This document shows, piece by piece, positions 22,165 to 52,283 of a stretch of 64,000 bases of DNA. Source of the DNA: an uncultured candidate division Zixibacteria bacterium (GTDB lineage Bacteria; Zixibacteria; MSB-5A5; UBA10806); NCBI GenBank assembly GCA_963817915.1, contig CAWFQL010000016.1:205690-269689 (forward strand), given 5' to 3'. A model generated the notes under the pieces. It was given only the letters and a program-made list of their open reading frames with translations. It was not told the DNA's origin and searched no databases. Numbering within the stretch: position 1 is the first letter of the stretch; the number at the start of each line of letters is the position of its first letter. Made by a program: the position numbers and the translations under genes.

Positions 22165-22704
22165 TTGCCGCAAGACCCTTCAAAATATTTGCCTAAACGC
22201 AAACAAACTCGTTTGAGGGAATATGATTATTCGAATCCAGTCGCATATTTCATTACGATTTGCTCGCAAGGTAGGAAATGCATTTTCGGCGAAATTGCGG
22301 GCGAGAAGATGAACCTAAATCATTTGGGACAGTTGATTCAAGAATGGTGGCTTGAATTGTCCCGCAAATTCCCGGAGATTAAGACGGACGAATGCGTCAT
22401 TATGCCCAACCATTTTCATGGCATCATAATTATTGTAGGGGCCGACCTATGTGTCGGCCCGATCATGACGGGCGCACGCGCAGGTGCGCCCCTACAGAAA
22501 ATTGTTCAATGGTTCAAAACAATGACGACAAACAGTATTTTCCGCGAAATGAAGAAGGAAAAAAAGCAAATTAAATTGTGGCAACGCTGCTATTATGAGC
22601 ATGTAATCCGCAATGAAAACGAGCTAAATGCCATCAGAGAATATATCATCAATAATCCATTAAAATGGGCGCTCGATGCCGATAATCCCGCAAATTTAAT
22701 CTAA
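22165..22704 (+). mobile_element. REP-associated tyrosine transposase (RAYT, Y1 HUH, IS200-like)
   Basis: RL..YDYS...YFITIC, MPNHFHGI (HUH), WQR.YYEHVIR, EYIINNP (catalytic Tyr); flanking REPs; no TnpB. Confidence 0.93.
22435..22495. repeat. Second REP doublet, inside the RAYT coding sequence
   Basis: 22434-22461 is identical to 22082-22109 (28 bp), plus an inverted REP ending CTAC; read in frame as VGADLCVGPIMTGARAGAPL. Confidence 0.85.
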
Positions 22705-29310: not shown

Positions 29311-32300
29311 TTAATAAATCTTGTATATGGCTGAAAATGCCCAATAATACGGCAGGCCATTATAAATGCCATAATTATATGAATTTGCCTCGCCGACAGC
29401 CTTGGTCAATTCTATGCCATCCCGCAGATCAGTAAGCAATTTCCAAAAATAGTATGACAATGATTGTTCCGGAATTGACCAAAGAGGTTTAAGATATGAA
29501 TCGAATCCATCTCTGCCAGCCAGCATTATTTCCAAGGCAATTTCCTTGCTTTTAGTCATTGAGTCTCGCGGAATTTCGCTTATAATCGAATTTGACCGGT
29601 TAATATTTTCTCCGGCAATATTTAGATATGAGCGACCGCTGATAATAATCTTTCCATAATGTTCATTACATTTACCGACCGCCTCCGCGATTCCCATAAT
29701 CGCCAGCGTGGCATTATCGCTTGACGCGCTGGTGTCAATAAAGCAAGGCATGGTTTTTAAGCTTTTTCGAGTTACCGTCTTGCCGGGAAGTCCAATGGCT
29801 CTTGTTATTGAATACATATCGGCCAGGTATGCGGCTCCGGGCCTCTTTAACGCCTCAAACGGAAATGCCATCCACTCGAAATCAGGACAAATTATCAAAT
29901 CGGTTTTTTGCTCCAATTGCTTTTCGAATGGCAAAATCAGAACATTATACCAGTATTCCAACGCTGAATCAGCGCGACTCTGATATTTCATAACTTCTGA
30001 AAAAGAACCAATATCCCTATTTATCGAAGCAGTATCTTTCGACACGCTGCTATGTATCAATGTATCCTCGTCAATGTAAAACAACTCAAGCTCAGTCGGT
30101 GTTTGATAAAGCCTTATTACCGCATTATTGCCGTTCAATTTTGTTTGCAGATCACTCAGGCTTCCGCCATACCCGGCCCAGAGCGCGATTCTACTGTTAT
30201 TTTCTCCACCGGATTTTGTAAGATAATTCGAGTAATTTCCTGATGAATCATTTTCAAATAATTTTATGCTTTTGTCCAGGATCGATTCATCGACACTATC
30301 ATACCTGCCAATCAAAATATTTTCCTCTGCCAGCTCGCGCACGAAGCCGACTTCAAAATAAGCCAATGACGAAGATAGATCGCGAATTTCAATTTTATAT
30401 GCAGCATAATCATCATAAAATTGCGCGATGTTGCCATCGAGAAAATATTTATTCCTGAAGTAACCTGATTCAGTCGGAATTATCCTAACAATCGAATCAG
30501 CGCTCGCCAAGTATTTTTCTAATTGCGGTCCCTTAAGCGATTTCCCCATGTGGTAATATGCACGCCATTTCAAAAAGCGTGTAACGGCAGGGTTATTATG
30601 TTCGGCCGCGGCCAAAAATAATTCGTTCGCTTTGTTTTGATCGCCGCGCTTTTCATTTAGTAAGGCCAATTGATATTGACAGAGAGAGCGCATGAATTCG
30701 TCCGATGTGGAATCTGATATACTCTGAAAAAGCGAATCGGCTTTCTCGCCAAGGCTCGCACGAGTAGCTGCCTGCTTAAACTCTAAAATATAGTCCTTTT
30801 CAGCCAGCGAATCGGATTTGATATATTCCAACGCTAATCTGTATTGTTCGAGCGCACTTTTGTAATCGTTCTTCTGGCGGAGAATATCGCCGATTTGCTC
30901 ATAGATACTATGGTATGTTGGCCTCGAATCGCCGGTAGCCGTTGCCAACGCCTTTTGGGCATAAAACCAAGCCGAATCCGTCTTATCAAACCATTGATAT
31001 ATTTCACTCCTCTCAAGACTGCCCTGAATACCATAATATTTACTATCCGGCAGGCCTTCCAATTGAGTCAGAGCTTTTCGCGGATTGCTATTCAATAGAT
31101 AAGAATGGCTCAAGAGCAGTCTGCTTCTAAAAACCGAGAATGAGTCTCCAGAAGTTTGCGAATATTTGTAAGCGTCCTGCAAAATTGTATTTTCTCGACC
31201 ATAATAATAAAGAGCATTATATATTTTCGATATTGCGGACGAGACACGATAGGCATTGCGATAATCATTATTATCCAGATATGGCTGCAATGATTTCGAA
31301 TAATTCGCCCCGGCTTCAGCATAATTATTCTCCATATAAAATGACTGACCGAGCGTGAAATAGGAAGCCGCCTTTAATGTATCATCATTCGCCCCCTCGG
31401 CCAAATTTACTGCCAGAATTGCATACTTTTTCATATCGTCAGGCTTTTTTAAGTCACTATAATATCGAGCGAAATCCAAATATCCTCTAACTACGATACT
31501 GGAATCACCTGATTTAATACCGATATCGATCGATTTATTAAGCGCCAAGTATTCGTCATCGTACAGTTTCGCGTTGCGCGCGATTCGCGCGTAATCCTGC
31601 CACATTTTCGCCTGTGTATTCAATGGCCAAAACAAACCGTTTATCATTTCTTTTTGGCTGCTAAGGGCTTTGCGGGAATTGCCCGCTCTAAGATAGACTC
31701 CGACTGCGCGATCCATCACGCTGTATTTGTCTGAAACCGATATTCCCGACCCTTGCCACTGAGCTAGCCCCGAATCATATAATCGTGCCGCCTTATTCCA
31801 ATCTTTCAATGCGGCCGCGCTATCCGCTCTCGCGATCGCTTGTTTATACCATAAAGCTTTTATCGTTTGTTTGTCTTTCGAATTCCAGCCGTTATTTCCA
31901 TAAAAACAGGCCTTTTCACTTTTAAAATTATTCAGGCCGGTCAATTTATAAGAAGTGTTAAATCCCTCAGCCGGACTCTGGGATTTTATTTTATCGAAAA
32001 AACTTAATAAAAATTCATTATATTGATTTTTCGAAAGGGAATCTGATAATGTTATTATGGCTCCGATACCGTTGGCCGAAAGTGATTTAAGTATCAGCCA
32101 TTTATCGGCAGCTCTATTGATTTCGGGGAAGCCGGTAATAATCAATCCAAATCCATCGGTCGAGAATTTGATAATATCTTTCACATAGAATCTTTGTCTA
32201 CTACTATCCGAACCATCCAGCGAATATTCCCAAAATGATAGCAGCGGATTTTCGCTATCATAATTTAGATGACCATCGATGACGATCCATCCAATGCCAT

Positions 32301-32691
32301 TTATACTATTGCCGGCTATCAAAGTATCAGGGGCTATTTCTACTGAATTCAATGAATTGAGCTCGGCAGAATCCAATATTGAATCGTCGAATTTAATATG
32401 GCATATATTTTCGAGCGAGTAATTATTCCGGTTCTGCCACTCGAGGCAATCATTAATTGAATAGGCGCTTTTTATTGTCTTTTGCGGATAATATTTATAC
32501 AGCAGGTTTCGTAGATATCCGCCGAAATTCCCTAACGATGAAACTATAACCGTTTGCTTTTTCTCTAATATTTTGGCTGCTGATGTTGGCAACGAATCGT
32601 TTGACCGATTTACGACAAACGAATTGATGCTATCGTGATCGATGGCCAGGACTTTGATGCTATCGTTATAATCCACGGGGAGAAGATACAA
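29311..32691 (-). CDS. C-terminal fragment of a giant exported protein: pseudo-CHAT / TPR / pseudo-CHAT
   Basis: CHAT-like motifs (GHLNYDSENPLLS; LIICPD...AFPFEAL; LWSIP; PYYWAF) without an HG/SAC dyad; TPR helices; frame open upstream of the TTG. Confidence 0.75.
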   Translation of the reverse strand: MYLLPVDYNDSIKVLAIDHDSINSFVVNRSNDSLPTSAAKILEKKQTVIVSSLGNFGGYLRNLLYKYYPQKTIKSAYSINDCLEWQNRNNYSLENICHIKFDDSILDSAELNSLNSVEIAPDTLIAGNSINGIGWIVIDGHLNYDSENPLLSFWEYSLDGSDSSRQRFYVKDIIKFSTDGFGLIITGFPEINRAADKWLILKSLSANGIGAIITLSDSLSKNQYNEFLLSFFDKIKSQSPAEGFNTSYKLTGLNNFKSEKACFYGNNGWNSKDKQTIKALWYKQAIARADSAAALKDWNKAARLYDSGLAQWQGSGISVSDKYSVMDRAVGVYLRAGNSRKALSSQKEMINGLFWPLNTQAKMWQDYARIARNAKLYDDEYLALNKSIDIGIKSGDSSIVVRGYLDFARYYSDLKKPDDMKKYAILAVNLAEGANDDTLKAASYFTLGQSFYMENNYAEAGANYSKSLQPYLDNNDYRNAYRVSSAISKIYNALYYYGRENTILQDAYKYSQTSGDSFSVFRSRLLLSHSYLLNSNPRKALTQLEGLPDSKYYGIQGSLERSEIYQWFDKTDSAWFYAQKALATATGDSRPTYHSIYEQIGDILRQKNDYKSALEQYRLALEYIKSDSLAEKDYILEFKQAATRASLGEKADSLFQSISDSTSDEFMRSLCQYQLALLNEKRGDQNKANELFLAAAEHNNPAVTRFLKWRAYYHMGKSLKGPQLEKYLASADSIVRIIPTESGYFRNKYFLDGNIAQFYDDYAAYKIEIRDLSSSLAYFEVGFVRELAEENILIGRYDSVDESILDKSIKLFENDSSGNYSNYLTKSGGENNSRIALWAGYGGSLSDLQTKLNGNNAVIRLYQTPTELELFYIDEDTLIHSSVSKDTASINRDIGSFSEVMKYQSRADSALEYWYNVLILPFEKQLEQKTDLIICPDFEWMAFPFEALKRPGAAYLADMYSITRAIGLPGKTVTRKSLKTMPCFIDTSASSDNATLAIMGIAEAVGKCNEHYGKIIISGRSYLNIAGENINRSNSIISEIPRDSMTKSKEIALEIMLAGRDGFDSYLKPLWSIPEQSLSYYFWKLLTDLRDGIELTKAVGEANSYNYGIYNGLPYYWAFSAIYKIY

Positions 32692-32698
32692 TTCATCA

Positions 32699-33061
32699 TT
32701 AGATATATTTTTCTGCAGTGAAATTGGAGATTCGGTTTCGAAATAGCAGGAAGGAGGCCAAGTTGGTATCGGCCGCGATCGCCTTATTCCTCATATCAGC
32801 AAGTCTTTGATATTGATGGGACAACTGATCACTGGTCTTTTTCAGTTCGATTTGCCCCTGGCTTCCAAGGTGTTCGAGCCGGCGTTTGGCCGATTTTAAT
32901 TCGGTCAAACTATTCGTATAATCCTTAACCTGATTGATATAGACCGAAAACAGTTTGCTTCTTGAGTCCTGTAGAGGATACAAATCGGCCCTCGCCAGTA
33001 AATTATATTTGCACTGCCTTTCGATATAAGACAATGCATCGATCAAATTATCCTTTTGCAT
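32699..33061 (-). CDS. Internal coiled-coil fragment of the same giant protein
   Basis: Frame open back to about 33250; ALSYIER plus coiled coil, typical of the region preceding CHAT domains. Confidence 0.6.
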   Translation of the reverse strand: MQKDNLIDALSYIERQCKYNLLARADLYPLQDSRSKLFSVYINQVKDYTNSLTELKSAKRRLEHLGSQGQIELKKTSDQLSHQYQRLADMRNKAIAADTNLASFLLFRNRISNFTAEKYI

Positions 33062-33179
33062 GGATATTAGAAACGCCCGGTCGTAAAGGCTATTGACGAA
33101 TTGAATATCGTCCTGAATAATTTTCGAAGGGATAATGCTCTCGTAGGAATTTATGGCATCGTTGATAGAAGTGATTGAA

Positions 33180-35639
33180 CTATCCTGGCTGAAAAATAGC
33201 CCTGATATTCCCTCGAATTTCGAATAGATATTTTCCGATAACGACTGATTTGCTGCATGTAGCGGCAGAAGACATATCTGAATTGGCTGTCGGGATATCT
33301 GAAAGAGCCAATGATGCTATCGAATGATTGGCAAGAAGCACGGTCATCATTGACTGCTCTCTTCCGTAGGGTATATCAGCCATAGCGTCTTGAAATAGTT
33401 TGCGGCTTTCCTGTAGCAGAGCGGTTGCGTTTGATCCCAGATTATTTAAGTCATTTATCCATTGCTCCAGATTAGCGCCATTGGGAAGTGTTTGAATTTC
33501 CATAATTTGAATAGCCCGATAGAATGCTATAACTCCCATGATGTTTTTCAGATTAGCCCTGGCTGTATAAAATGTCGGTTGAATATTCTTAAGTAATTTC
33601 GAAATTTCATTCTTTAACTTATCAAGTTCCGCTGGATAGTTTTTACTTTTGATCATGTAGCTTGATGAAAGAACGATTTGCGACCAATTAACGAGATCGG
33701 TATACGCGCTAATATAGTCCGCCTTTTTTACAGATATGTCATAGGCATGCTCAAAGCAGGACTGCGCCGAGTCCAGCATCCCTATCTCAAAGTAATCTCT
33801 GCCCACTTGACTCCATGCGGAGGCTAATTTGGGCCATTCGGAATTTTTTTCTAGAATTTGGAGTATTATTCTCGATGAGCCAATGGAGATCAAACGGTTG
33901 TTTGAATCTTCTGCGACTGATAATAAAAACGCGTGATTCGCTGGTTTTGTAAAACCATCGGGGTAAAGAGATCCGCCAAATGTAAACGGAGGCAATTTTA
34001 TTGTCGGAATACTAATTTTCAGAAATGTTATTATAAATCTGACACGGTCATCCTCAGTGATTCCCCCGTTTTTGGCCAGGCCTAATTCCTTAATACCCCG
34101 AAGTGCCATGTCCGATGCCCGGGTCTTATCTCCGATTGCTTGAAAACAAATAGCCTCGCCCTTGCATATATTAGCCAACATAATATGGTCTCTAATAGAA
34201 TCGAAATATACGAGCGCTACTTCATAATATTTAAGCGCAGTATCATAATCATTAAGCAATTGATAAATCATACCCAGCTTAATCGCGAATTTTGCTTTGC
34301 TCTTATTGTCGGATATTTCGACCGCCATTGAATAAAGCGTTGAAAAACAAGCTCTTGCTATATTAAGACTATCTACTTGAAATGCCGATTCACCGTAATG
34401 CATCAAATATGGTATCGTGTTCTCCCGCCTGATAATACTGGAATCGGTTTTGATCGCCGTCAGATAATTCTCGAACGCTTTTTGATACTGCGCGATCCCG
34501 AAATAACCTTCGGCGGCATTGAGATAAAATCCGGCTCTCATAAAGGGATATTGGGATGATAGCGCGATTCCGGTCAGGGAGAGATCTATGGTCTCTTCAT
34601 ACAATCCCAAAGGCTTTTTCGATGTTTGTTCAAGCAGGCAATTGACATATCCCAGTGATAGATAGCTCGCGGGGTTTTTAAAATCCAACTCTCTGGCGGA
34701 CAATAATTCTTTGCGAGCCTTACCCAGATATCCGGTAGATTTTTCACTTTCAAAGCGCGCGACAGATTCCAGCGCGTCAAAATATTTTCGGACAGGCTGT
34801 TTATCGATAATGCCGGCTGTTTTTTCCCATTTATTCCAATCCTTGGTGATTTCTATGCATTTCGCCGCGCCCCATAATGTCCTGATATTGGAATGATCCA
34901 ATTCAAGCGCGTTCGAAAAATAGTCATAGGCGGTTTTGGCGTCCTGTGATAAGATATTTTCGCCCATCGATACTAACAGCGATACCATACTTTCCCGATA
35001 GGACCGTCGGTCCGCCTCGCTGTCGACAATTTGAATGTAGTTTCCCGATGAATCATAATAGACTTTAGCGAGTAGATAGTCATTTCGCTTTCTGGCAAGG
35101 TCTCCAAGCCGTTCGTATGAATAAAACATGATGTCTTTTTCATTCGGATAGTTCGAAAGTATCTCATTGTATTTCCATTCGGCGGTCAGGCTTTGCCCGG
35201 AATAGTAGAATCTATTGGCTTGTTCCAGGACCGCAAACGCCGATAATCTTTTGTATTCCGAAAAACTGTTTCGAATAGACTCCAACATTCCGGTGGCGAT
35301 ATCCGTCGGTTCTTTCCGTGTAATATTAATTATATCCCCAATCGCCGAGTCGCCCCAGGCGGCATCTTTTCCGAAATTATCGATATAATTTACATAGATG
35401 ACGACCAGGTCCAATGGATCTCCGGTAAAGCTTGAAACCATATTTCGCAATTTTAGAAGCTGCAGATAGGAGACAAAGCCGCTGTCGGAAGGGTACCGTT
35501 GTATCCCTTGCGTAATAAGACTATCGCTGATGTCGATATTCCCGATAATATTCCCGGCAATGACACAATGGATATAAGCCTTCTTTACAATTTCAGATGA
35601 GAGACTCGCATCGTTAACCAACTTACGTGTCAAATTCAA
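33180..35639 (-). CDS. TPR-rich internal fragment of the same giant protein
   Basis: Many TPR-like helices (LGMIYQLLNDYDTALKYYEVAL); frame open upstream to about 35760. Confidence 0.72.
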   Translation of the reverse strand: MNLTRKLVNDASLSSEIVKKAYIHCVIAGNIIGNIDISDSLITQGIQRYPSDSGFVSYLQLLKLRNMVSSFTGDPLDLVVIYVNYIDNFGKDAAWGDSAIGDIINITRKEPTDIATGMLESIRNSFSEYKRLSAFAVLEQANRFYYSGQSLTAEWKYNEILSNYPNEKDIMFYSYERLGDLARKRNDYLLAKVYYDSSGNYIQIVDSEADRRSYRESMVSLLVSMGENILSQDAKTAYDYFSNALELDHSNIRTLWGAAKCIEITKDWNKWEKTAGIIDKQPVRKYFDALESVARFESEKSTGYLGKARKELLSARELDFKNPASYLSLGYVNCLLEQTSKKPLGLYEETIDLSLTGIALSSQYPFMRAGFYLNAAEGYFGIAQYQKAFENYLTAIKTDSSIIRRENTIPYLMHYGESAFQVDSLNIARACFSTLYSMAVEISDNKSKAKFAIKLGMIYQLLNDYDTALKYYEVALVYFDSIRDHIMLANICKGEAICFQAIGDKTRASDMALRGIKELGLAKNGGITEDDRVRFIITFLKISIPTIKLPPFTFGGSLYPDGFTKPANHAFLLSVAEDSNNRLISIGSSRIILQILEKNSEWPKLASAWSQVGRDYFEIGMLDSAQSCFEHAYDISVKKADYISAYTDLVNWSQIVLSSSYMIKSKNYPAELDKLKNEISKLLKNIQPTFYTARANLKNIMGVIAFYRAIQIMEIQTLPNGANLEQWINDLNNLGSNATALLQESRKLFQDAMADIPYGREQSMMTVLLANHSIASLALSDIPTANSDMSSAATCSKSVVIGKYLFEIRGNIRAIFQPG

Positions 35640-35730
35640 GAGGGAATCCCATCCGGTGGTCTGCAGATTCTCCAGGCCATCCTGAAAATCCAGCCAGGCT
35701 AAGTCTAATTTGATATCTGCCCGAAAATTA

Positions 35731-36849
35731 TTATCGGTCGGTAGACAACGCCGGCGATAATTCCATCCGAGCCAGTTCTCGCAGATCCAGATTGCCGTAA
35801 ATTTCTGCTGATTTAATTAGGGAAGATTTGCAGGAATCCGGGAAATATTTATAAGCCGAATAATAAGCATCTGCCAGAACAATCGAATCTTTATAATTTA
35901 ATGAAAATCGTAATATAGAGTCGGCGAATAGCTGTTGTTCCCGAAACGTCTTAAGCCTTGGTGTCAGGCCATCGATATTAAGCGAATAGATATCACCATC
36001 GCTACCGACCGCGGCCAGGCTTCGTTCCCGAGAAATCGCGGGCTGGTCGAAACCATACCCATAATATAGGTAGGTGACAGTATTATCATTTAATCTCAGG
36101 GTCGCTATATTGGGAATATCATCGAGATTGATTTTGTCATTATTGTCAGTATCCCGGTTTCTATTAGAATAAATAATCTCCGAGCCATCAGGAGTATAAA
36201 CGGGATGTGTGGCGATCCCATCTCCGGTATTGAGCAAAATCTGAACGGAATTACTGACATCATAAGTCGCCAGTCGCATTAATCCTGACGAATCGACAGT
36301 TACATATACGATACTTTCGCCTGAAGGCGCGAATGACGGTTCTTTTCCGGATGGGCCTTTAACGGAATTTTTGACTTTAGTATCATAAAAATAGATAACC
36401 GGCTGTTTTTCGTTATCGATATGAACATAGGCTATCTTCTTATTATTTGGTGAAATGACTGGGCTATCGAATGAGCCAGGGCCCCCGACTAATTTTTCCG
36501 TTTTTGTCCCTTTGATATCGCTTAAATAAATCTCGCCCCCGGCATTATCCTTGGTAGAAACATATAAAATCCGGTCATTCCCCCAGAACGACGGTGAGTA
36601 TTCAGAGGATGTGTTTTTTGTGACCTGCCAGCCTTTTTTGGATTTGAGATCAACAACCCAAATATCCTCGTTCCCGCTTCGAGTCGATGTGTAGGCCAGA
36701 TATCTTCCGTTAGGCGAAAACGAAGGATCATAGTCCGGAGCAAGGTGACTCGTAATCGGCGTCGGTAGATTTAATTCAGATGCGACCAGCCCTCCGCCAA
36801 GAATCAGTGAGGCGATTGCTATAATTTTGAAAATTCTGCCTATAGCCAT
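35731..36849 (-). CDS. N-terminal fragment of the giant protein: signal peptide + TolB/PD40 beta-propeller
   Basis: PSFSPNGRYLAYTS.RSGNEDIW, PSFAPSG, PVYTPDG repeats; EF-hand-like loop DTDNNDKINLDD. Confidence 0.8.
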   Translation of the reverse strand: MAIGRIFKIIAIASLILGGGLVASELNLPTPITSHLAPDYDPSFSPNGRYLAYTSTRSGNEDIWVVDLKSKKGWQVTKNTSSEYSPSFWGNDRILYVSTKDNAGGEIYLSDIKGTKTEKLVGGPGSFDSPVISPNNKKIAYVHIDNEKQPVIYFYDTKVKNSVKGPSGKEPSFAPSGESIVYVTVDSSGLMRLATYDVSNSVQILLNTGDGIATHPVYTPDGSEIIYSNRNRDTDNNDKINLDDIPNIATLRLNDNTVTYLYYGYGFDQPAISRERSLAAVGSDGDIYSLNIDGLTPRLKTFREQQLFADSILRFSLNYKDSIVLADAYYSAYKYFPDSCKSSLIKSAEIYGNLDLRELARMELSPALSTDR

Positions 36850-37422
36850 CTACTTCCTTTGCCATTTGCCGGATGATTCTTCAATCCACGAGCCGCTGGG
36901 AGAAGAGCGAGCCATAAGGCCGGCGAAATCCTGTCCCGCGATTTTCAAACTGTCTTGCGATGTTATCCCGCGCGAACTGGCGTAAAATTCCAATATGATT
37001 TTGCGATCATGATTTTCGGCCTCGACCAGATTATTTACGGCATCGATCCCCTGAATTGTATCCGACATCACGCGTACTGTCCCATCGATTTTTTCGCCCA
37101 CATATCCCTGTTTTTTCAATTCATTCAGGTCGCCCGAAATTGTCTGGCGGCGAATTTGGGCCAGAATCAATTCTCGTCTCGAGTTTCTATCGGATATTAT
37201 GGAAGTATCCGCGGGAATTTTGAATTGATCCTGGAAAAATGTTCCCCCAGACCATACCGCGGCAACCATCAAGGGGTCTTGAGATAGCCGTTCTTGTTTT
37301 CCAAGGAGCTGATTTTCAAGGGCGGTTTTATCGGATGTAATCTTCATCTCAGGCGGTTTTATAGTGCATCCTAATGATAAGATTAATCCTGCCAATACCA
37401 TATTGCGAAGGTTTATTGCCAT
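36850..37422 (-). CDS. Lipoprotein with YnbE-like N-terminus and DUF1318 (YdbL-like) domain
   Basis: Lipobox LSLG-C; KTALENQLLG; LKKQGYVGEKIDG, LVEAENHDR, FA, G.WI...G.W motifs. Confidence 0.82.
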   Translation of the reverse strand: MAINLRNMVLAGLILSLGCTIKPPEMKITSDKTALENQLLGKQERLSQDPLMVAAVWSGGTFFQDQFKIPADTSIISDRNSRRELILAQIRRQTISGDLNELKKQGYVGEKIDGTVRVMSDTIQGIDAVNNLVEAENHDRKIILEFYASSRGITSQDSLKIAGQDFAGLMARSSPSGSWIEESSGKWQRK

Positions 37423-40400
37423 CCTGCCTCCTTCAAATTATCAATTATCGTCTTTATTGGTATGCGGCCATACCTTATTGGCATCGGAATCCTCAAAATC
37501 GGGATCGCCTCCGCAAAAAATGGCTGATCCATATAAATTTCCGGATACGCGGCGCCATGTTCTATCTTAAATGAGAAACTTTTCGGTCTGTAACTTAGGT
37601 CGATTATTTTGAGAAATTTTCTGTTCAATAGAGCTCGTGTTTGAGCTACGCCGGGATTCTGATTTTGAGGATCGATGACATCCAGAACCCTATTTGCTAC
37701 CTGCGGCCCCATTTCGGTTATATTAAATACGCCATCGAGCGTATAATCGGCGCCGGGCGCTATAAGGCCTCTGCCCCTAAATGAAAAATCAGCCGAGAAA
37801 AGAGCCGAACTCTCCTGAGGTCCGAACGATCCAACAAGCTGGTTGAAATCAAGACTGGCTAATTCGAGCGACATTTCATATCCCAGCCTATCGAAATTAG
37901 GAAATTCGCGCATCATGTTTATTTCGCTAATATCGAAACTGGATTTTCCTACGAAATTCCCACCGAGAATATTGCCGGTGATCAATGGCATCATCAGGAC
38001 ACCATCGCGGAACGATAAATCGACCGAAATATTATCTACATTGATATCGGGCGCGCGTACGCTGCCAATCGTAATATTCCCGAACTTCCCTTCGGAGATC
38101 ATTCCCTGTCGGTCGCGCCTGTAAGTCGATATAGGAAACATGCTCCCGACAGGTTTCTTGACGAATAACGAATCGTACATATTCATCGTACCGGTTATTG
38201 GCGCATTTCCGGTTATACCACTGCACGATATCCCCGCTGGCCCGACAATTCCGAGGCTATCGAGATTAAATTGGCCGCCGAATTTCAGCGTATCGCCAAG
38301 CTGATCGGTTTCAAAATCACAATTTAACGCTCCGTAAATCGAAATCATGCTGTTTAACGCTGAAGTATCCGGCGAATCGCGCTTAATTGAGTATTTGATA
38401 TTGGAAAATGGGATATCTTTTACCGAACCAAATTCGCCGGCGCAGACAATACTTGTTCTCAATGATGGGATAAGGGCAGTCAAGTTTCCCAGTTTCCAGA
38501 TTGAATCTGAACCATAGTCCAGGCGCGCGCTTATAGGAATATTTTCAAATGCGATATCGGAGTAATTCTCGGCGTAAAGAGCGCCAACAGTATCATGAGA
38601 TTCGATCGACATTTCAAGTCCATGCAGGCTAATCTCAGATAACCCGGTAAATTGGCGGATAAGTATTTTATAATCTTCCAAAAGCACATCGGTTGGCTCG
38701 ATAACAATTGAAATTGCCCCACTCGGATTAATACTGTCAGTTGGGCTGGATATATTTCCATTAATTTTAGTGAAACCCGAGATGTCCATCGGCCCCAATA
38801 TCTCTGTCAGATTTTTCGGGAAAAACGCGGGCAGTTGAGCATCGTCGATATTAAGATAAAATCTGGCGCTGATGCTGTCTTTGCTTGACTTCGATAACGG
38901 ATAATTCGCGGACAGATTACCATCGAAAACATTATCCAATTTATAATTTGCATCGGCCCTGATTCTATCTTTATCAATCATGGCATTTCCCTGAAGGTCA
39001 AATTTCCGGTCGCCCAATGAAAGAGTGTCATTTCCCGAAACAATTGACATGCCCATCCCGGCGATATCAGATTTAAACGCGACCGAGTCCCTGTGTCCCG
39101 AAAGAGAGGTAGTCATATTGATTTTGCCGTTTGCCGACATCTCGCCATTTGTCATCAGACGATTCGATAAATTCGATAGATCGAGATTATTGGCCGCGAT
39201 ATTGAAATTAACATTAGATTTTTCCAAGACTGCATTTATGACCATATCGCCGCCGAAGAAATCCGCGATCTTCCCATCTAAATCGAACGTGACAATATTA
39301 TCATTGATACCGCCATTTCCTTCCAACGTTAAATTAGCAATCTTCAAAGCCTTATCTTTGGCCAATAGATACCTGACACTTTCCACAGACGAAGCAATAG
39401 TGCCATTGGCCGAGCCATTTGTCCCATCCACAAGAATGCTGCCGTTGAGACCGGCCACAAACGCTGTGTCGCTATAATTTATGGCCAGATTTGAAAGCTC
39501 CAGCCCAAGATGGTAAACGAGGCTTTCCGTCGAAATGTTTATAAGGCCTTTATCGAGCGATATCGCCCCATCAAGCTTCAATGGCATGCCGGATTGTCGG
39601 ATCAAACCTGAGAATTGTTCTAATTTCCAGATAACTGGATCCAATACTATCATTACGTTGGGATTTTTGTTGATCTGCACCATCCCACCGCCCGAAATCA
39701 ACCGACTGTTATTTAGAGAGATTCTCATCGAATCAATATCAACCGAATTGTCGTTGATATTCGTGGTGGAATTCAGGGAAGCATCTACATTTCCAATATC
39801 ATACTTGTTCCCAAAAGTAGCTTCAATATTCGATATGCTTATATTGAAATTCTGTCTTGATTTATCAACGGTCGAAAATTTTCCCGAAGCCGCTATATCC
39901 AAATTGCATTCGATCCCGATTGTATCCTGCTCATAATGAATTTTGCCATCCTTGCCTTCTGCCTCATATGCAAACGAGAAATTCTTGATATTTGTGAAAT
40001 TCAGCTTTGATATTGCCAGCTCAAGGTTCATATCAGCCTGAGGGCCAATCACCGCGAATGAGCTGACGACGCAGCTATCCATAATTACCCTGAATGGCAA
40101 TTCGACTGTTTTAGGTTGGGATGTATCCGGAACGGCCGCCATTAGAGATTTGGGGATATTTCCGTAATCAAGCAAACCACCATCCACCAGGATATAACGG
40201 ATCTTCAGCTTTTTCGATATTAATTCATTGGGGGATATTTTGATTCTTATGCTATCCACCGAAAACCATTTGGTGGAATCTTCAGAATTAAGAAGCGTTA
40301 ATCCAATAATTTTTATTTGAAGCCAGTTGTCAATCTTGAGTGATTCTATTTGAACTTCGCTTGCAGTTGATTTTCTTAATGTCTCTGAAGCTAATGTCTT

Positions 40401-40505
40401 TAATCGATTATCACTGAAATATAGCCTGGCTGAAATAATGGCAATAATCAGAAACGCGAATAGTCCACCGATTATTCGCAACGATATTCGTATCTCTTTG
40501 CGCAC
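37413..40505 (-). CDS. AsmA/YdbH/TamB-like bridge protein
   Basis: Single N-terminal TM anchor followed by ~1000 aa of repeated amphipathic beta-strands; adjacent to a DUF1318 gene as in ydbH-ynbE-ydbL. Confidence 0.72.
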   Translation of the reverse strand: MRKEIRISLRIIGGLFAFLIIAIISARLYFSDNRLKTLASETLRKSTASEVQIESLKIDNWLQIKIIGLTLLNSEDSTKWFSVDSIRIKISPNELISKKLKIRYILVDGGLLDYGNIPKSLMAAVPDTSQPKTVELPFRVIMDSCVVSSFAVIGPQADMNLELAISKLNFTNIKNFSFAYEAEGKDGKIHYEQDTIGIECNLDIAASGKFSTVDKSRQNFNISISNIEATFGNKYDIGNVDASLNSTTNINDNSVDIDSMRISLNNSRLISGGGMVQINKNPNVMIVLDPVIWKLEQFSGLIRQSGMPLKLDGAISLDKGLINISTESLVYHLGLELSNLAINYSDTAFVAGLNGSILVDGTNGSANGTIASSVESVRYLLAKDKALKIANLTLEGNGGINDNIVTFDLDGKIADFFGGDMVINAVLEKSNVNFNIAANNLDLSNLSNRLMTNGEMSANGKINMTTSLSGHRDSVAFKSDIAGMGMSIVSGNDTLSLGDRKFDLQGNAMIDKDRIRADANYKLDNVFDGNLSANYPLSKSSKDSISARFYLNIDDAQLPAFFPKNLTEILGPMDISGFTKINGNISSPTDSINPSGAISIVIEPTDVLLEDYKILIRQFTGLSEISLHGLEMSIESHDTVGALYAENYSDIAFENIPISARLDYGSDSIWKLGNLTALIPSLRTSIVCAGEFGSVKDIPFSNIKYSIKRDSPDTSALNSMISIYGALNCDFETDQLGDTLKFGGQFNLDSLGIVGPAGISCSGITGNAPITGTMNMYDSLFVKKPVGSMFPISTYRRDRQGMISEGKFGNITIGSVRAPDINVDNISVDLSFRDGVLMMPLITGNILGGNFVGKSSFDISEINMMREFPNFDRLGYEMSLELASLDFNQLVGSFGPQESSALFSADFSFRGRGLIAPGADYTLDGVFNITEMGPQVANRVLDVIDPQNQNPGVAQTRALLNRKFLKIIDLSYRPKSFSFKIEHGAAYPEIYMDQPFFAEAIPILRIPMPIRYGRIPIKTIIDNLKEAGWQ

Positions 40506-40662: not shown

Positions 40663-43600
40663 TCAGATTGTTTTTGTCTCGGCTGCGGTAAGGATTTCAC
40701 GAACCTTTTGTAGCAATTGACTCGTTTTAAATGGTTTTGCGATAAAATTGATCGTGGAATCGAGAGCGCCGTCCTTAATTATGGTCTTGTCGGTATGGCC
40801 CGACATAAATAGCACCTTGATATTGGGGAATGAGACAGAGACGCGATCATAAACTTGTTTGCCATTCATACCGGGCATAATGATATCAGTTATTATAAGC
40901 TGAATCGGTGAATCATAGCTGCTGCAAATAGCTATTGCCTCGCCGGGGTGAGATGCCTGCAACACCTTATAGCCTGCCTTGGATAATATTCTGAATGCCA
41001 GATCTCTGACAATATCTTCATCTTCTACCAAAAGTATAGTTTCCGTACCGCCTAAAACCAGGCTCTTATCTTTATCTTTGCTCGATTCATCAAATACCTC
41101 TTCCGAGCGTGGTAGAAATATACTAAATACCGTGCCGACACCCGCTTCGCTCTCGACCATAATCTGTCCGCCGCTCTGTTGTACAATACCATAAACCGTT
41201 GATAGCCCAAGGCCTGTACCTTTGCCGACATCCTTGGTCGTGAAAAATGGTTCGAAGATATGGCTTCGCGTCTTTTCATCCATCCCATATCCGGTATCGC
41301 TTACCGATAACTTTATATATCTACCCTTGCTAATTTCCACCCCGTATACGGCTGGATTATCATCAAAATTAACATTAGATGTCTCTATTATGAGCTTTCC
41401 GCCATGAGGCATGGCGTCGCGGGCATTGACGCTCAAATTCATTACGATCTGTTCAACCTGACTGATATCCGCTTTAATATTTCCCAAATCACCGGCTAAA
41501 TTCAGCTTAATATCTATGTTTTCCCCCATTACCCTTTGCATCATCTTGTTCATATCGACAACTACCGAATTCAGGTTAAGCGTTTTGGGCTGCAGCATCT
41601 GGCGACGGCTGAAGGCGAGGAGTTGACGAGTTAGCGACGCGGCCCTTTCGCCTGCCTTCTTGATTTCCTCAACGTCCTGCTTCATAGGATCAGAATCATC
41701 GAGCCGTTCCAGGGTTAATTCGCTGTAACCATTAATTGCGGTCAGTAGATTATTGAAGTCATGGGCGATTCCGCCGGCCAATTGGCCGATTGCTTCGAGC
41801 TTCTGCGAGTGGCGGAGTTGGTTTTCGAGCGCAACCTCTTGTGTCACATCACGTTTGACCGACACATAGTTGATGATTTTCCCCGCGCCATCGCGAATTG
41901 GCGAGATCGTAGCATCTTCCTCGTATAATTCGCCGGATTTCTTTTTATTAATGATGTGACCCTTCCAGGTTTCGCCTCTTGTAATAGTGTCCCACATCTC
42001 TTTATAGAATTTCGCGTCATGTTTGTTGCTTCTCAAAATCCGTGGGTTTTGGCCGATCGCCTCACTGGATTTGTAACCGGTTATCTCCTCGAACGCGGGA
42101 TTCACATATTGGATATTTCCTTGGGCGTCTGAAATAACAATAGCTTCCGCTGACTGTTCAACAGCGGTTCCAAGTCGGCGCAATGTTTCCTGCGCGTTTC
42201 TCAATTCGGTAATATCTCTCGCGAACACAAAATGATATTCCTGACCGTTAAATTCCTGATAATTGATATTAACTTCGACCGGGATATGGCCGCCATCTTT
42301 CTTTCTGAAATCGGACTCTGAAATGAAATTGCCGTGTAATTTGATTTTAGTCCATAGGCCCAACCAATTTTGAGGAGTGATAAATGTATCGATATCCATG
42401 ATAGTCATAGACTGCAGTTCGTCCTTTGTGAAGCCAAGCATCGTACTTGCAACTTCATTGACATTGATAAAGTGGCCATCTGGCGCAATCCAAAATATCA
42501 AGATATCTGAATGATCGATACCATACTGAGTCAGCTTTAAGGCGTCTTCCATCTTTTTCCGTCCGGTTATATCGCGGGCCGCCGCAAAAATGCCAATCAC
42601 CTGTCCCGCATCGTCTCGATAAACCGAGGCGTTATACAAAACCGACATTACGCTTCCACTCTTGTGCCTCAAGTCAAGGGCATAGTCTATAACTTTCTCA
42701 TCGTGGAATACTTGGAGGAATCCCTCTCGCGCCTTTTCAGGATTCGTAAAATAGCCGGAAAAATCGGTTCCGATTAGTTGATTTCGATTAAATCCGGTTG
42801 CCTTTTCCGTAGCGGCATTAACGTCGGTTATCTTGCCGTTTGGTCCGATCGTGAACATCGGATCAAGGCTGGCTTCGATCAGACTGCGGTTATAGACTCC
42901 CGCCAAGGCCAACGCTTCCTCGGCACGTTTATGATCCGTAATATCCTCTACCATCGCCAGCGTATATGAGTTATTTTTGCTATCCTCATTCAGCATTGCA
43001 ACTGTCAAATTAGCCCATATATACTCGCCGTTTCTTTTAACATATCTCTTTCTAATGCTGTAGCTTTTTACGTCGTTGGTGAATATCCGGTGGGCTTTTT
43101 CAAGGCTTTCGTCCATATCTTCAGGGTGAGTTATGTCATTGATCGTCATATTCATTAATTCTTCTTCCGTATACCCTAACATATTACAGAACGATGAATT
43201 AACTTTCGTGAAACGGAGGTCGGAATCTACGATTACAATACCCAATGGCCCGTGCTCAAATATATTCCTATATCTTTCTTCGCTGGCTTTTAACGCATCT
43301 TCCGCCCTTTTCCGTTTGGATATATCCCTGGCGGCGCTAACAAATCCTATAATATTGTTATTATTATCCCTGAGATAAGAAGCTTTTATTTCCGCCCAGA
43401 TTTTGCTCCCGTCTTTCCTGATATATTCAAGCTCAATCGTTCTGTATCTAAAGGGATCGCTACTATCAACTTTTTCCAGCTCAAGATCCTCTTTGAATTC
43501 CTGATTGAGTTTATTGAATGATTCGACAGTCAGATACCGATCGACGGTTAGTTCCATCGCTTCTTCGACAGTATAGCCCAGCATATTTTTTATTGAGGGA

Positions 43601-46107
43601 CTTATATAAGTGAAACGGAAATTCAAATCCAACGTCCAGATGATGTCCAGTGAATTATCCGCCAATAATCGATATCTTTTTTCGCTCTCGCGCAACGCTT
43701 CCTCGGCCAATCTGCGTTCAGTAATATCAGCAACAAATCCTTCAAGGGCTATGACAGCGCCATCGTTTGAAAATATACCCTGGCCTTTTTCCCAAACCCA
43801 TTTCTCAGTATTATCCGCCGTAATAATCCTATAAGTAGTTTCGAATGGCTCTTTCTTAATCAAAGCCTCCTGAACATCTTCGAATACGCGCATTTTATCG
43901 TCGGGATGAATTATATCATTATAGGTGATATTAGATTTGGTGATAAATTCATCCGGCGTATACCCGGTCAATCCGTAACAACCTTCGCTTAAAAATTCCA
44001 TCGTCCAGTCGATATCATTCCGGCAACGATATGCCATGCCGGGGAGATTGCCCATCAGGGTAGTAAGCGCCCTTTGTTTTTCGCGCAATTCATCCGAAAC
44101 ACTTGCCGCAGTGAGGGAAAGAGCTGCTTCTGTGGAAATAGATTCAAGCTGGTCTGCCTGCTCGGGCCCAAACGCATTGTACTGATAGCTTTGAACACTC
44201 AAGACGCCTACCAAACGCCCCTGGGTCTTTAATGGGAAATAAGTGAGTGAACATGATGGTCTAGTAGAACCATCAATAATCGGATAATTGCTTTTCTGCA
44301 ATTTCTGAATCTCTTCCGGCGTCCTGTGAATTATGACCGGACGGCCCTGAGTCATGACATGATGGAGATTTTCTCCTAATTTATGATAATTGATAACTCG
44401 GTTGGTCTCAATTATTTTGTCGCCGCTTGCTTCCGTATCAAACCTGTAAAGGATTTCAGATGATTCATTCGGCTCCGGCGAATTTAGGAGCGCGATAAAG
44501 CCGGCGTCACACGGCATCAATGTAGAGATGAAATCGAAAGTAGTTCTGGCTATTTCAGTTATTTCTGATAACCCCACCAATGCTTCCAAAAAGCTAGCTC
44601 GGGCCTTTGCCGTCTTTTCATCTCTCCTCGGTTCGGATATATCGGTTATACTAATAAGTAGTTTGCGACCCGATTTTCCCGATGCTCCCGAGATGCCGAT
44701 TATTTCGAAACTTAGCGTCTGGATAATATCGCCGGTGCCCGATCTGCACAGCAAATCAATTTCAAATCCGACGGGTTGTTCATATCTTTTATTGAGATAC
44801 TCCGTAAGCCGTTGTCTGATTGTACTGCATGTATCCAAATTATGCTGGGATTCCATTGTCGTGGCGTTTTTGATTGATTCGATAATGCTTTTGCCGACCA
44901 TGGGTTCGCGAAAAGCATTGAATTTCTTGGTAAAACCGAAATTGACATATTCAATTATAAGCTTATCATTGATGATTGCCAAGGGCGAAGGGATCGATTC
45001 GACTATCATTCTGTTCAATTCGCTCAGGCGTTGGATTTCGGCAGATTTTTGCTTTTCTAATTCAAGCTTTAGGCGCGCCTTAATCGCCCATCTCGACGAG
45101 ATTCCAAACAGTACAAATAATACCACGAGGAGCAGAATCATGAACGCCATCAGTAGATAATCTTTGTTTATGGGACTTGAAAGATCATCGCGGTTGCCTA
45201 CAATCGCCGAGCTAAAATGACGATTAAGAATATTTATCTCTGTGAACGCAACCAGTTCTATGGTGCCGCCCGCCAAATTATTTTTGTATTCAATTGTCCC
45301 GGATTTCTCATCCTGAATTCGCTTTCTTACGATATCTTCCATTTCTTCTTCTTCGGGATCTATACCGTTATGCTCCGCCCGATAATCTTCTTCGATTTCT
45401 GCCCAGGTTCTATAGAGATATTCGGGATTGGGGTGATACAAAATTCTGCCGTTGTCATCGACTATCCATATTTCGCCGCCATTAGAAGCGCCTTCCCGAA
45501 TGAACGATTGGGTCCAGAATTCCCTAAGATCAATTCCGGCCATAACTACGCCAATGAAATTCATGGACTTATCATATAGCGGTAAGCTTAAAAGCAGGGC
45601 TTTTTCTGTGCTATCATACGGGCATGTACTTATTCCGGTCAAATAGGCTTTACCAGTAATGCGAGGTTGGATGAAGCCTTCCTGATTCGAAATATCGGTA
45701 CCCCTTGAACTGTCATGCCTGGGATATCCAAAGAGGAAATGACCCTTTGAATCGGTCATATAAATATTCTGAATTACGTTATCGTGTGAGGCATAAAATT
45801 GCCTTATTTCTTCCATGGCTTCGGAGGTAGCCTCATTTGCCCTTATTGAATATTTAATATGGGTCAAATCCGAGTAAATATCCTCAAATTTGGCTTCTAC
45901 CGAATTCTTCAGATAATGGATTGTTGTCAACTGCTGTTTCTGATATGCATCTATTAAGGCTTTTTCGTTTTGAAGATGCTTCTTATTAACCAAAAATACC
46001 AGTACCGGTATAATAATGGCCACCAAAACCAATAGTCTTTGATGTTTTATAAAATTCTTAATATAGATTGCGAACTGAGAGAATCTCTTAAAACCTGAAT
46101 TAAACAA
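40663..46107 (-). CDS. Hybrid sensor histidine kinase (Cache-PAS-GAF-multiple PAS-HisKA-HATPase-REC)
   Basis: 2 TM around a Cache-like domain; at least 6 PAS/PAC units ending DIT/DIS/DVT; [13 protein letters not shown]; GTGLGL; C-terminal receiver. Confidence 0.95.
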
Positions 46108-46389: not shown

Positions 46390-46860
46390 TTAATAGCTGC
46401 AGATAGTAATCATATTTTTGAGTTCTTTGACTTGATCAAGAGCCTTATGCAGGTCTCGGCCTTTTTGTTTGAGGGTTGTCTCCAATTCCATAATTCTCTC
46501 ACCGATCTTCAGGCGCGACTTTAGCTCATTTGAATCGAATGGCCTGAATACGTAGTCATCGGCGCCAGCTTCCAACCCTTCGGCTATATCATCTTTGCGA
46601 TTCTTTGTGATCAACATTAATATATAAATATGGTAATAGGTTTCGTGCTTTCTAATTATTTTGCAGAGCTCCGCGCCGCTCATGTCGGGCTGGCTAACAT
46701 CTATTATTGCTAGCCTCGGGTATTCTTTAGACGTTAATATTTCCTTTGCCTCCTTGCCGGAGCAAGCCGCGGCTACTTCGTATCCCCAGTTGGACAAGGT
46801 TGCCTCAAGAAGTTTTCTCGATATTTCATCGGGCTCGGCCACCAATACTTTGAATTTCAT
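46390..46860 (-). CDS. Atypical response regulator (REC + coiled coil), possibly C-terminally truncated
   Basis: REC fold with EP in place of the acidic pair and YVFRPF (Lys to Arg); ends at ...ITICSY. Confidence 0.82.
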   Translation of the reverse strand: MKFKVLVAEPDEISRKLLEATLSNWGYEVAAACSGKEAKEILTSKEYPRLAIIDVSQPDMSGAELCKIIRKHETYYHIYILMLITKNRKDDIAEGLEAGADDYVFRPFDSNELKSRLKIGERIMELETTLKQKGRDLHKALDQVKELKNMITICSY

Positions 46861-46914
46861 ATTTTATCCATGGATCGTAATATTTTTTTAGGATTTCACA
46901 AACCTTCAAATATA

Positions 46915-46941
46915 TTATCGACATAATTTCGTGCAGTTTCA
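46915..46941 (-). promoter_or_regulatory. Possible sigma-28 promoter TGAA-N15-GTCGATAA
   Basis: Correct spacing, one mismatch per box. Confidence 0.4.
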
Positions 46942-46991
46942 ATTTTGCTAATTCATCTGCAGATATTTCCGAAAATATAGATTTTTTATTC

Positions 46992-47027
46992 AAAACGCAA
47001 AAGCCCCGAAAAAGATTCGGAGCCTTG
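46992..47027 (-). terminator. Intrinsic terminator of the che operon
   Basis: Minus strand ggctccgaa...ttcggggct followed by tttgcgtttt. Confidence 0.6.
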
Positions 47028-47130
47028 ACAGATATGCAAAATCTATTCGCATCGGCAAAAATCAAGAAGACAATGTGATTATTGCCTTTAATTAATTTTT
47101 ATCTATTAATAAAATAGTATTCCTTTCATA

Positions 47131-47646
47131 TTAAACAGTCATGGAGGCCGGATCAGGAGCCTTAACTGCTGTTTCGCCAGTTCTCACTTTCATGCTGATC
47201 TCCATCACAAAACTGCTGCCTTCCAATTTGAATGGCACGATAACAACCGGTGTGCCGGCCTTATGTGTAATGGTATGGGCATTACCCATGACGACTGTTG
47301 GGATTGAGATATCGAATGACAGCCTCATTTCGGAATATTCCTTTTTAGCACCGCCGGCAACTATATTAGCCAGCTCGCCTACGATATCGCGAACGTCATC
47401 ATTAATAGCGGTCAATGATTCATTCATCATTTTATTATAAATTTTGAGCGCCGTGGCAGTCGGAAAACTCAAAGCCACCGACCCGTAGATATTGCTGGCC
47501 GCGAATCCTATGATTCCCGAAATATCGCCCTGCGGAATACTATCATTCTTTACCGTAGGCGCCATTCGCTCTGCGGGCATCCCCAACATCGTCTCGATAG
47601 CCGCCACAACCGAATTTATGAAAGGATTGATAAATTTAACGTCCAT
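47131..47646 (-). CDS. cheX: Chemotaxis phosphatase CheX
   Basis: INPFI, DISGIIG, GELANIVAG (ExxN), ISIPTVVMG. Confidence 0.92.
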   Translation of the reverse strand: MDVKFINPFINSVVAAIETMLGMPAERMAPTVKNDSIPQGDISGIIGFAASNIYGSVALSFPTATALKIYNKMMNESLTAINDDVRDIVGELANIVAGGAKKEYSEMRLSFDISIPTVVMGNAHTITHKAGTPVVIVPFKLEGSSFVMEISMKVRTGETAVKAPDPASMTV

Positions 47647-47670
47647 TTTATCCTCCAGCTTCCACCAAGG

Positions 47671-48030
47671 TTATTTTCCAAGTGTGGCTTTAACTTTTTC
47701 GACCAGTGTTTCGGGCGTGAATGGTTTTACTATATAGTTATTAACGCCTTGCTTAAGGGCTTCCATGACCTCGGTTTTGGCTCCTTCTGTTGTAATCATT
47801 ATTATCGGAACCTGCGCCAATTCGTTACGTTTTCTTATTTCTTTTACCAGAGTAAGCCCGTCCATAATCGGCATATTCCAATCTGTAAGCACCAGCTCGA
47901 CGCCTTCGATATTATTAATTGCTTCGGCGCCGTTGCTTGCTTCGACTATCTCGCTAAATCCGGCGGATTTTAGATTTCCTCCGATAATTCTTCGCATAAT
48001 GGAGGAATCATCGACTACCATGATCTTCAT
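47671..48030 (-). CDS. cheY: Chemotaxis response regulator CheY
   Basis: VVDDS, TDWNMP, MITTE, YIVKPFT. Confidence 0.92.
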   Translation of the reverse strand: MKIMVVDDSSIMRRIIGGNLKSAGFSEIVEASNGAEAINNIEGVELVLTDWNMPIMDGLTLVKEIRKRNELAQVPIIMITTEGAKTEVMEALKQGVNNYIVKPFTPETLVEKVKATLGK

Positions 48031-51333: not shown

Positions 51334-51335
51334 TA

Positions 51336-52199: not shown

Positions 52200-52241
52200 G
52201 ATTTGGGCTCCTACCAATTTTGTCTAAATCGTTTCTAAATG

Positions 52242-52273
52242 AGCCGGGGCATCTTGTTTTAGATGCCCCGACT
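52242..52273. other. Intra-operon hairpin between the MCP gene and cheR
   Basis: Perfect 10-bp stem cggggcatct/agatgccccg; no strong U-tract on the transcribed (minus) strand. Confidence 0.5.
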
Positions 52274-52283
52274 TCAGTATTAG

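Follow-up and report, generated by a model that had tools for sequence, protein, structure and literature searches.

Three coupled genes and a split reading frame

The stretch analyzed here, referred to as the window, comprises 64,000 nucleotides (nt) from the genome of an uncultured candidate division Zixibacteria bacterium (assembly GCA_963817915.1, contig CAWFQL010000016.1, positions 205,690 to 269,689). Within it, three genes, designated A, B and C and together called the trio, follow each other on the minus strand. The source genome is denoted G000, and two of its contigs C16 and C17. The three genes, with lengths in amino acids (aa), are as follows.

37413-40505, minus strand: gene A, an open reading frame (ORF) of 1030 aa with a GTG start, encoding a predicted inner-membrane-anchored, AsmA-like protein with a conserved C-terminal block
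36850-37422, minus strand: gene B, encoding a predicted lipoprotein of 190 aa with an N-terminal extension and a C-terminal YdbL/DUF1318 domain
29311-36849, minus strand: gene C, about 2510 aa read over three +1 shifts, encoding a predicted exported scaffold with a PD40 propeller, TPR repeats and two pseudo-CHAT domains

The tight coupling described in an initial annotation of the locus is borne out by the ORF coordinates. Genes A and B share 10 nt (37413-37422), and the gap between the stop of B and the start of the first ORF of C at 36849 is 0 nt. A promoter and terminator scan and an Rfam scan of the locus returned nothing decisive. Gene C is spread over four ORFs.

35731-36849, minus strand: ORF 1 of gene C, 372 aa
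33180-35639, minus strand: ORF 2 of gene C, 819 aa
32699-33061, minus strand: ORF 3 of gene C, 120 aa
29311-32691, minus strand: ORF 4 of gene C, 1126 aa

The reading frames of these ORFs run 0, 2, 1 and 0, corresponding to three +1 shifts, and the total length of 7536 nt yields about 2511 codons after three 1-nt corrections. At each shift the stop-to-stop open frames overlap.

35731-35816, minus strand: zone of frameshift 1, overlap of stop-to-stop open frames 1 and 2, 86 nt
33180-33316, minus strand: zone of frameshift 2, overlap of stop-to-stop open frames, 137 nt
32699-32790, minus strand: zone of frameshift 3, overlap of stop-to-stop open frames, 92 nt

The initial annotation had proposed that the pieces form one 7.5-kb gene once the shifts are removed, and had named independent genes as the alternative. 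When the intact 2518-aa homologue of the related genome G007 was aligned to the window with tblastn, its residues 9-374, 403-1187, 1205-1360 and 1373-2517 proved colinear with the four pieces, and this alignment contained no in-frame stop inside any of them. A single open frame of 2412-2518 aa occupies the matching place in eight genomes of the same family, which takes the assignment of the four ORFs to one gene beyond chance. A genome of the same class has a single open frame of 2676 aa, and across relatives intact C ranges from 2412 to 2750 aa. Thus, the four ORFs are colinear pieces of one gene of about 2510 aa and not genes of their own.

As a yardstick for the shifts, 400 kb of the complete genome G006 were used, containing 227 ORFs of at least 200 aa. 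An orthologue in G000 was found for 146 of these (at least 40% identity and at least 70% coverage; 63,070 aa in total). In this set 17 frameshift junctions were detected in 14 genes, 14 of the 17 in the +1 direction; the affected share in the G000 assembly is about one gene in ten. One of the 17 lies in the window, where it splits ftsX (12634-13492). Outside this set, one further frame change each was seen in lptD, in a C1 peptidase gene and in a 767-aa gene of G000. Motifs were counted in 20 junction windows of the +1 direction (14 from the G006 comparison, plus the six junctions in C and these three genes), three junctions of the other direction having been left out beforehand. TTTCG occurred in 8 of the 20 windows (1.9 expected) and GATTT also in 8 (2.4 expected). 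Short T runs (AATTTTCGG, GGATTTTCAGG) are present in the junction window 35639-35749 of gene C, where they lie on the 3' side of most of the zone 35731-35816, not throughout it. Homopolymers of five or more bases were absent from the six junctions examined; of all 20 junction windows, four contain homopolymers of five or six bases. A reference-free count of the +1 bias in adjacent ORF pairs (263 versus 273) was uninformative.

Because the shifts are one-sided, linked to motifs and found in about one gene in ten, they are read as errors of the assembly. Most probably this holds for all three shifts in C, which in the organism itself is then probably an intact gene. If C were instead a real pseudogene, the shifts would be genuine and only A and B functional in the source organism. 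This we regard as improbable. It would account for the density of shifts, three within 7.5 kb compared with about one per 11 kb genome-wide (Poisson P about 0.03), and it would agree with the replacement of a semi-conserved Cys by Ser in the C-terminal CHAT domain. Since the shift rate in C is somewhat above that of the genome, a small probability of recent decay in the source organism is retained. However, the same kind of shift, mostly in the same direction, affects genes throughout the assembly, and well-conserved ones of housekeeping type, for example ftsX and lptD, are not spared; the junctions are enriched in short T-run motifs; and the pieces of C are free of in-frame stops and colinear with their homologue over the full length. 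The many +1 shifts of the G000 assembly are not to be taken as pseudogenes. Another frame break, near the end of the giant, was seen in a metagenome-assembled genome (MAG), G009, in whose C homologue the last ~75 residues lie in another frame (L017 / G009:C70:12006-12230).

Family assignments of the three proteins

In Escherichia coli, proteins of the AsmA class form a periplasm-spanning beta-groove and are thought to carry phospholipids. The E. coli operon ydbH-ynbE-ydbL encodes an AsmA-like intermembrane bridge, YdbH-YnbE, together with a periplasmic modulator, YdbL (PMC11126948; bioRxiv 10.64898/2026.03.16.712125 = PMC13464000). All published work on YdbH-YnbE-YdbL that was found concerns E. 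coli. The initial annotation had likened A to YdbH, and had taken B for a fusion of a YnbE-like and a YdbL-like part.

Protein A carries a hydrophobic N-terminal helix at residues ~9-29, as read from the sequence, which is kept in all homologues examined. Eight of ten close relatives match the Pfam families AsmA and DUF748. A profile search of 1.84 billion representatives returned 6593 relatives at E <= 1e-3, of which 924 reached E <= 1e-10 and 186 reached E <= 1e-30, mostly proteins of 1000-1130 aa matched over their full length. When 36 of the 150 family members listed were scanned, most matched AsmA and/or DUF748, many of them above the cut-off, one for instance with 81.6 bits on Pfam AsmA; YhdP was matched by four and the YdbH family (PF11739) by none at E 1e-3. 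A hidden Markov model (HMM) built from 74 sequences of the A family scored 59.2 bits against E. coli AsmA, 32.3 against TamB, 12.1 against YhdP and -1.4 against YdbH. The deeper family profile matched TamB as solved in chain 9xdc_B (E 2.8e-7), and a shallower profile of ten sequences found nothing useful in the PDB. PF11739 matched two of the ten close relatives at E 0.001. NCBIfam, including its YdbH model NF007971, gave no name to A or B, and the Leptospira LIC_11026 family had no match in G000. The C-terminal block of A is conserved only within its own family. On this profile evidence, A is a member of the AsmA-like superfamily and lies nearest to AsmA, in agreement with the initial annotation, and the closer likeness to YdbH was not upheld. 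A continuous beta-groove is implied only by the homology to solved TamB. A shares with E. coli AsmA and TamB (solved as 9xdc/9xdd) the family-profile matches and an N-terminal membrane anchor; at 1030 aa its length compares with 617 aa for AsmA and 1259 aa for TamB and, unlike for TamB, no TamA-type barrel gene adjoins it.

A second AsmA-like gene is present in G000, a TamB-family gene at C17:132777-136313 (PF04357, 120 bits) with an open frame of 1181 aa. A is therefore regarded as an accessory paralogue. Some relatives possess extra AsmA-like ORFs of ~1300-1390 aa that match the N-terminus of A.

Two parts of protein B can be told apart.

37297-37368, minus strand: residues 19-42 of B, the predicted lipidated Cys followed by the motif C-T-I-K-P-P-E-x-x-I-T-x-[ED]-K-T-A-L-E-x-Q-L-L-G, derived from nine Zixibacteria sequences
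36853-37137, minus strand: YdbL-type (DUF1318) domain of B, residues 96-190, assigned from Pfam, solved YdbL and hhalign

The lipobox reads LSLGC, with Cys19 as the lipidation site. Columns of the motif after the Cys are invariant or nearly so in the nine Zixibacteria sequences, and the EKTALENQ core is also kept in a second phylum. DUF1318 (PF07027) is matched by residues 96-190 with 54 bits (E 2.5e-14; cut-off 27). The B profile finds the solved E. coli YdbL (28oj_A) at E 0.002, and hhalign aligns B with E. coli YdbL at 86% (E 4.9e-6), covering the whole of mature YdbL. In this alignment YdbL residues E35, N58, R61, W104 and K107 correspond to E110, N137, R140, W187 and K190 of B, all five invariant in nine sequences; in YdbL they are conserved and required for function, according to the report on that protein (bioRxiv 10.64898/2026.03.16.712125). 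These matches identify the C-terminal domain of B as a true homologue of YdbL, and the description of B as a DUF1318/YdbL lipoprotein stands. B departs from the soluble periplasmic YdbL form of ~90 mature residues in its lipidated Cys19 and a 75-residue extension. Long DUF1318 forms (183-209 aa) fall into 57 clusters, the named ones all from Zixibacteria and annotated as 'DUF1318' or 'YdbL family'. In a look-up of a B homologue, Spirochaetota was the commonest label among DUF1318 clusters of ~200 aa, which serves as a lead only.

The proposed YnbE-like part of B fared differently. The YnbE model PF13617 (Lipoprotein_19) did not match B in Pfam even at E 10, and over the whole of G000 (93.9% complete) it revealed no YnbE gene, the best match (E 0.6) lying elsewhere. 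In hhalign, B matched YnbE at 4.8%, and its mature N-terminus, from which the signal peptide had been removed, matched a YnbE alignment at 4.7%. A value of 79% obtained with the signal peptide was rejected, as it reflects the generic lipobox. By eye, the B segment KPPEVxITSEKTALENQLLG bears a loose likeness to PKEPITI...DKDVEELLE of YnbE, without statistical support, the features likened being a proline-rich start and an acidic C-terminal helix. The idea that the N-terminal half of B is a second copy of DUF1318 was likewise rejected (hhalign 0.3%).

Three domains of protein C were delimited.

35950-36849, minus strand: N-terminus of C, with a signal peptide (no lipobox in the window) and a TolB-like PD40 beta-propeller (PD40 71.8 bits)
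31879-32694, minus strand: internal, degenerate CHAT-like domain of C, delimited from an alignment of 27 giants and CHAT-like motifs
29314-29901, minus strand: C-terminal CHAT-like domain of C (Pfam CHAT E 0.009), in which the His is absent and a Ser stands at the Cys position

A signal peptide is present in all C homologues examined, accompanied by a lipobox in some, and TPR matches extend along ~1,900 residues. The initial annotation of C as an exported protein with a PD40 propeller and TPR repeats is supported. An intact homologue matches TolB (TIGR02800) at E 9e-28 with 97.3 bits, far below the equivalog cut-off of 343 bits. C shares the PD40 propeller repeats with TolB of the Tol-Pal system, but the match covers the propeller in part only, and the TolB N-terminal domain is lacking. 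The CHAT family (PF12770) is matched weakly by the C-terminus of C (15.9 bits against a cut-off of 24). Six of seven C homologues match it at E <= 0.01, two of them above the cut-off and the best, from G025, with 40.9 bits; these matches cover only the two ends of the model. The internal CHAT-like domain was not detected by Pfam at E 0.01, and a PDB search with a profile of the C-terminus yielded nothing useful. The giant family, searched for by word index, yielded only 12 proteins. Its sole close relative with an organism name comes from Zixibacteria, and one weak match was to a PD40 protein of Sulfidibacter (E 5.9e-5).

The catalytic His-Cys dyad of CHAT proteases is carried by the motifs HxxxHG and LSAC. 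Both motifs are present in all four distant PD40-TPR-CHAT giants compared (P0157-P0160), which resemble C in domain order (propeller, TPR, C-terminal CHAT) and in length (2426-2846 aa). In contrast, neither motif occurs in C of the window or in any other trio giant of the alignment, and in Zixibacteria the trio giants contain a second, equally degenerate CHAT-like domain. The alignment of 27 giants has no conserved His or Cys column. Relatives in family f1 keep a Cys (x-C-x-x-K-P) in the C-terminal CHAT domain, at the position that is Ser in the window. These alignments support the view that both CHAT-like domains of C are pseudo-CHAT domains devoid of the catalytic dyad; the initial annotation had suspected one such domain, and the loss extends to two. 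That C is an active protease here, processing B or A in the way DegP degrades free YdbL in E. coli, appears very improbable. The distant giants do keep the canonical dyad, and YdbL is a DegP substrate in vitro (bioRxiv 10.64898/2026.03.16.712125); however, the His motif and the Cys are lacking from both CHAT-like domains of C in the window, and none of the aligned trio giants of Zixibacteria possesses the His.

Conserved linkage and genomic context

A profile search for B across 285 genomes of the phylum Zixibacteria identified the gene in 18, distributed over four families (f1, 9/13; f2, 1/10; f3, 2/3; f4, 5/5) and found in none of the others. Full-length A (E <= 1e-76 in the profile search) is confined to exactly the same 18 genomes. 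A further 162 genomes match the A profile at E <= 1e-10 with other AsmA-like proteins, and these weaker matches span at most the first ~270 residues among those listed (63 weaker ones are not in the list). The DNA around B was read in all 18 genomes. C follows B in 18/18, as far as contigs and scaffold gaps permit, and A precedes B wherever the contig extends far enough. In six relatives of family f1 (G007, G005, G006, G010, G001 and G009) the overlap between A and B amounts to 4-10 nt, with a spacing of 0-3 nt between B and C. In G011 the trio is split over two short contigs. A split C in G013 was considered as a rearrangement and rejected, since C is broken there at two 100-N scaffold gaps. 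In this MAG, designated a 'complete chromosome' (C at L024:10577-11197 and L014:4019-11170), the gaps lie 2.6 Mb apart, which suggests a mis-ordered scaffold.

The trio extends to a second, small GTDB phylum, represented by the genome of locus L031, in which B was found in 6/6 genomes, each time flanked by A and C. Where the genes are complete, A measures 1205-1318 aa and C 2569-2728 aa, at a G+C content of 58-65%; those C proteins whose start could be read are predicted lipoproteins. Overall, all 24 B genes of the two phyla are accompanied by A and C, so the conserved linkage whose absence would have spoken against the initial annotation is in fact strict. In the second phylum a gene for a FecR-domain protein with a signal peptide follows C in all three loci scanned (L061:14216-15247, L063:13916-14653 and L064:1451-2191) and may be a fourth, lineage-specific member.

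Strict linkage bears on the question of whether C belongs with A and B at all. C might merely be co-regulated with them, acting as a stand-alone periplasmic TPR/propeller scaffold, for instance in the turnover of cell-wall or outer-membrane proteins, and making no contact with the bridge; the operon would then only keep the amounts of A-B and C in step. We think this unlikely, although contacts among A, B and C are something that we infer. The periplasmic pairs NlpI-Prc and LbcA-CtpA, each a TPR-lipoprotein scaffold with a protease, offer a precedent: their activity responds to the levels of AsmA-like proteins, that of Pseudomonas aeruginosa LbcA-CtpA falling upon overexpression of tamB, yhdP or ydbH, and the available part of that account does not report them as parts of a bridge (PMC12569750). 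Their likeness to C is loose and functional only; their proteases come from other families, and, unlike in the trio, their genes have no AsmA-like neighbor. Against mere co-regulation stand the all-or-none co-occurrence and adjacency at 24 of 24 loci, the 0-3 nt spacing of B and C, and the movement of the trio as one block.

This movement is apparent from the neighboring genes. Of the 18 Zixibacteria genomes, at least 11 have lptD upstream of the trio, and in family f1 ftsK-lolA lies downstream. In G000, lptD and ftsK-lolA are adjacent to each other on C17, and the trio is found on C16 between two histidine-kinase genes, from which it follows that the trio was relocated as a block in this genome. 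Flanking genes vary among carriers and the trio is constant. The lptD-...-lolA neighborhood is compatible with a role in building the outer membrane. It would also suit a module resembling TamB-TamA, in which A aids the insertion or assembly of outer-membrane proteins or lipoproteins and does not carry bulk phospholipid, with B and C replacing the TamA barrel. Both lptD and lolA are outer-membrane assembly genes, and the A family matches TamB, solved and from E. coli, as given above. We nevertheless consider such a module quite unlikely: G000 already has a TamB-family gene above the Pfam cut-off, the nearest E. coli paralogue of A is AsmA and not TamB, and the sole partner with a characterized homologue points to YdbL, which is part of the YdbH lipid-bridge system (PMC11126948).

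At its present site in G000 the trio is preceded by a gene for an 1814-aa hybrid histidine kinase (40663-46107; dCache, GAF, five PAS, HisKA, HATPase and receiver domains). Next to it, at 46390-53756 of the window, lies a chemotaxis-type cluster with receivers, CheX, HDOD, CheD, CheB, CheR and a methyl-accepting chemotaxis protein. A 179-aa ORF at 22165-22704 encodes the C-terminal portion of an IS200-like Y1 transposase, and thus a remnant of a mobile element lies ~7 kb from the relocated trio.

A candidate envelope module

With moderate confidence, we lean towards the view that the trio is a conserved three-gene envelope module consisting of an AsmA-like protein (A), a YdbL-type lipoprotein (B) and a non-catalytic scaffold (C). 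The comparison with E. coli suggests how its parts may fit together. In the published accounts, YdbH is not long enough to bridge the periplasm, strand addition by YnbE lengthens the YdbH groove from the outer-membrane end, and YdbL binds both the C-terminal helix of YnbE and the C-terminus of YdbH (PMC11126948; bioRxiv 10.64898/2026.03.16.712125). By analogy, A would be an AsmA-like bridge anchored in the inner membrane, and B a lipoprotein with a complete YdbL interface, probably anchored in the outer membrane, that docks on the far end of A, at the conserved C-terminal block, as YdbL and YnbE do on YdbH. B may also take over the anchoring role of YnbE, of which no gene was found in G000, and so provide the outer-membrane tether. 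Since its catalytic residues are lacking, C could serve as scaffold for this bridge, a platform that holds, positions or regulates A-B relative to partners in the outer membrane or cell wall.

Both systems couple an inner-membrane-anchored AsmA-like gene translationally to a small lipoprotein gene and contain a YdbL/DUF1318 domain, in which the five residues named above are conserved. As in the YdbH family, the operon partner is a YdbL homologue, B lying directly downstream of A. The trio differs in that A falls outside the YdbH family, that no YnbE was found, that its YdbL is itself lipidated with a 75-residue N-terminal extension, and that a third gene encoding 2,500 residues is added.

Several observations weigh against the envelope-module view. 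A itself scores 21.7 bits with Pfam AsmA/DUF748 (residues 1-113), below the cut-off of 29.8. By sequence it is not a member of the YdbH family: PF11739 has no match in G000, and hhalign pairs A with E. coli YdbH at a probability of 0.3%. The N-terminus of B is not demonstrably YnbE-like on the alignments given above, so that the YdbH-YnbE-YdbL model is carried over to the trio by the YdbL domain and the gene order only. Even for the E. coli proteins, lipid transport has not been shown biochemically, going by the available portion of the account (PMC11126948). The excess of shifts in C, with the small probability of decay attached to it, counts in the same direction.

A bolder form of this proposal can be put forward tentatively, and we hold it to be possible without expecting it. 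The trio would make up a trans-envelope machine, so far undescribed and present in several phyla, in which an AsmA-like lipid bridge and its lipid-anchored YdbL cap are physically held by a giant of TolB propeller, TPR and caspase fold. Such a machine might couple the supply of lipid to the outer membrane with the assembly of the cell wall or outer membrane, and its caspase fold would be catalytically active in some lineages and, in Zixibacteria, a dead module that serves for binding.

Literature searches, which did not extend to supplementary tables, retrieved no description of this trio, nor of an AsmA-like gene linked with a CHAT or TPR giant. A search for 'DUF1318' returned unrelated matter only, and publications on Zixibacteria and AsmA were apparently unrelated, judged by their titles and the openings of their abstracts. 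The core of an AsmA-like protein and YdbL is already known; what is new is that YdbL is long and lipidated, that YnbE is missing and that a giant pseudo-protease is an obligatory part. To our knowledge, partners of AsmA-like proteins on the outer-membrane side are known only for TamB (TamA) and YdbH (YnbE, YdbL).

The route by which phospholipids reach the outer membrane is still an open question. In at least two phyla, and often next to lptD and lolA, a different AsmA-like protein keeps a YdbL-type partner together with a strictly linked scaffold of 2,500 residues. If A, B and C form one complex, lipid bridges would gain a new type of partner on the outer-membrane side, and a caspase fold would have been reused as a non-catalytic module in the periplasm.

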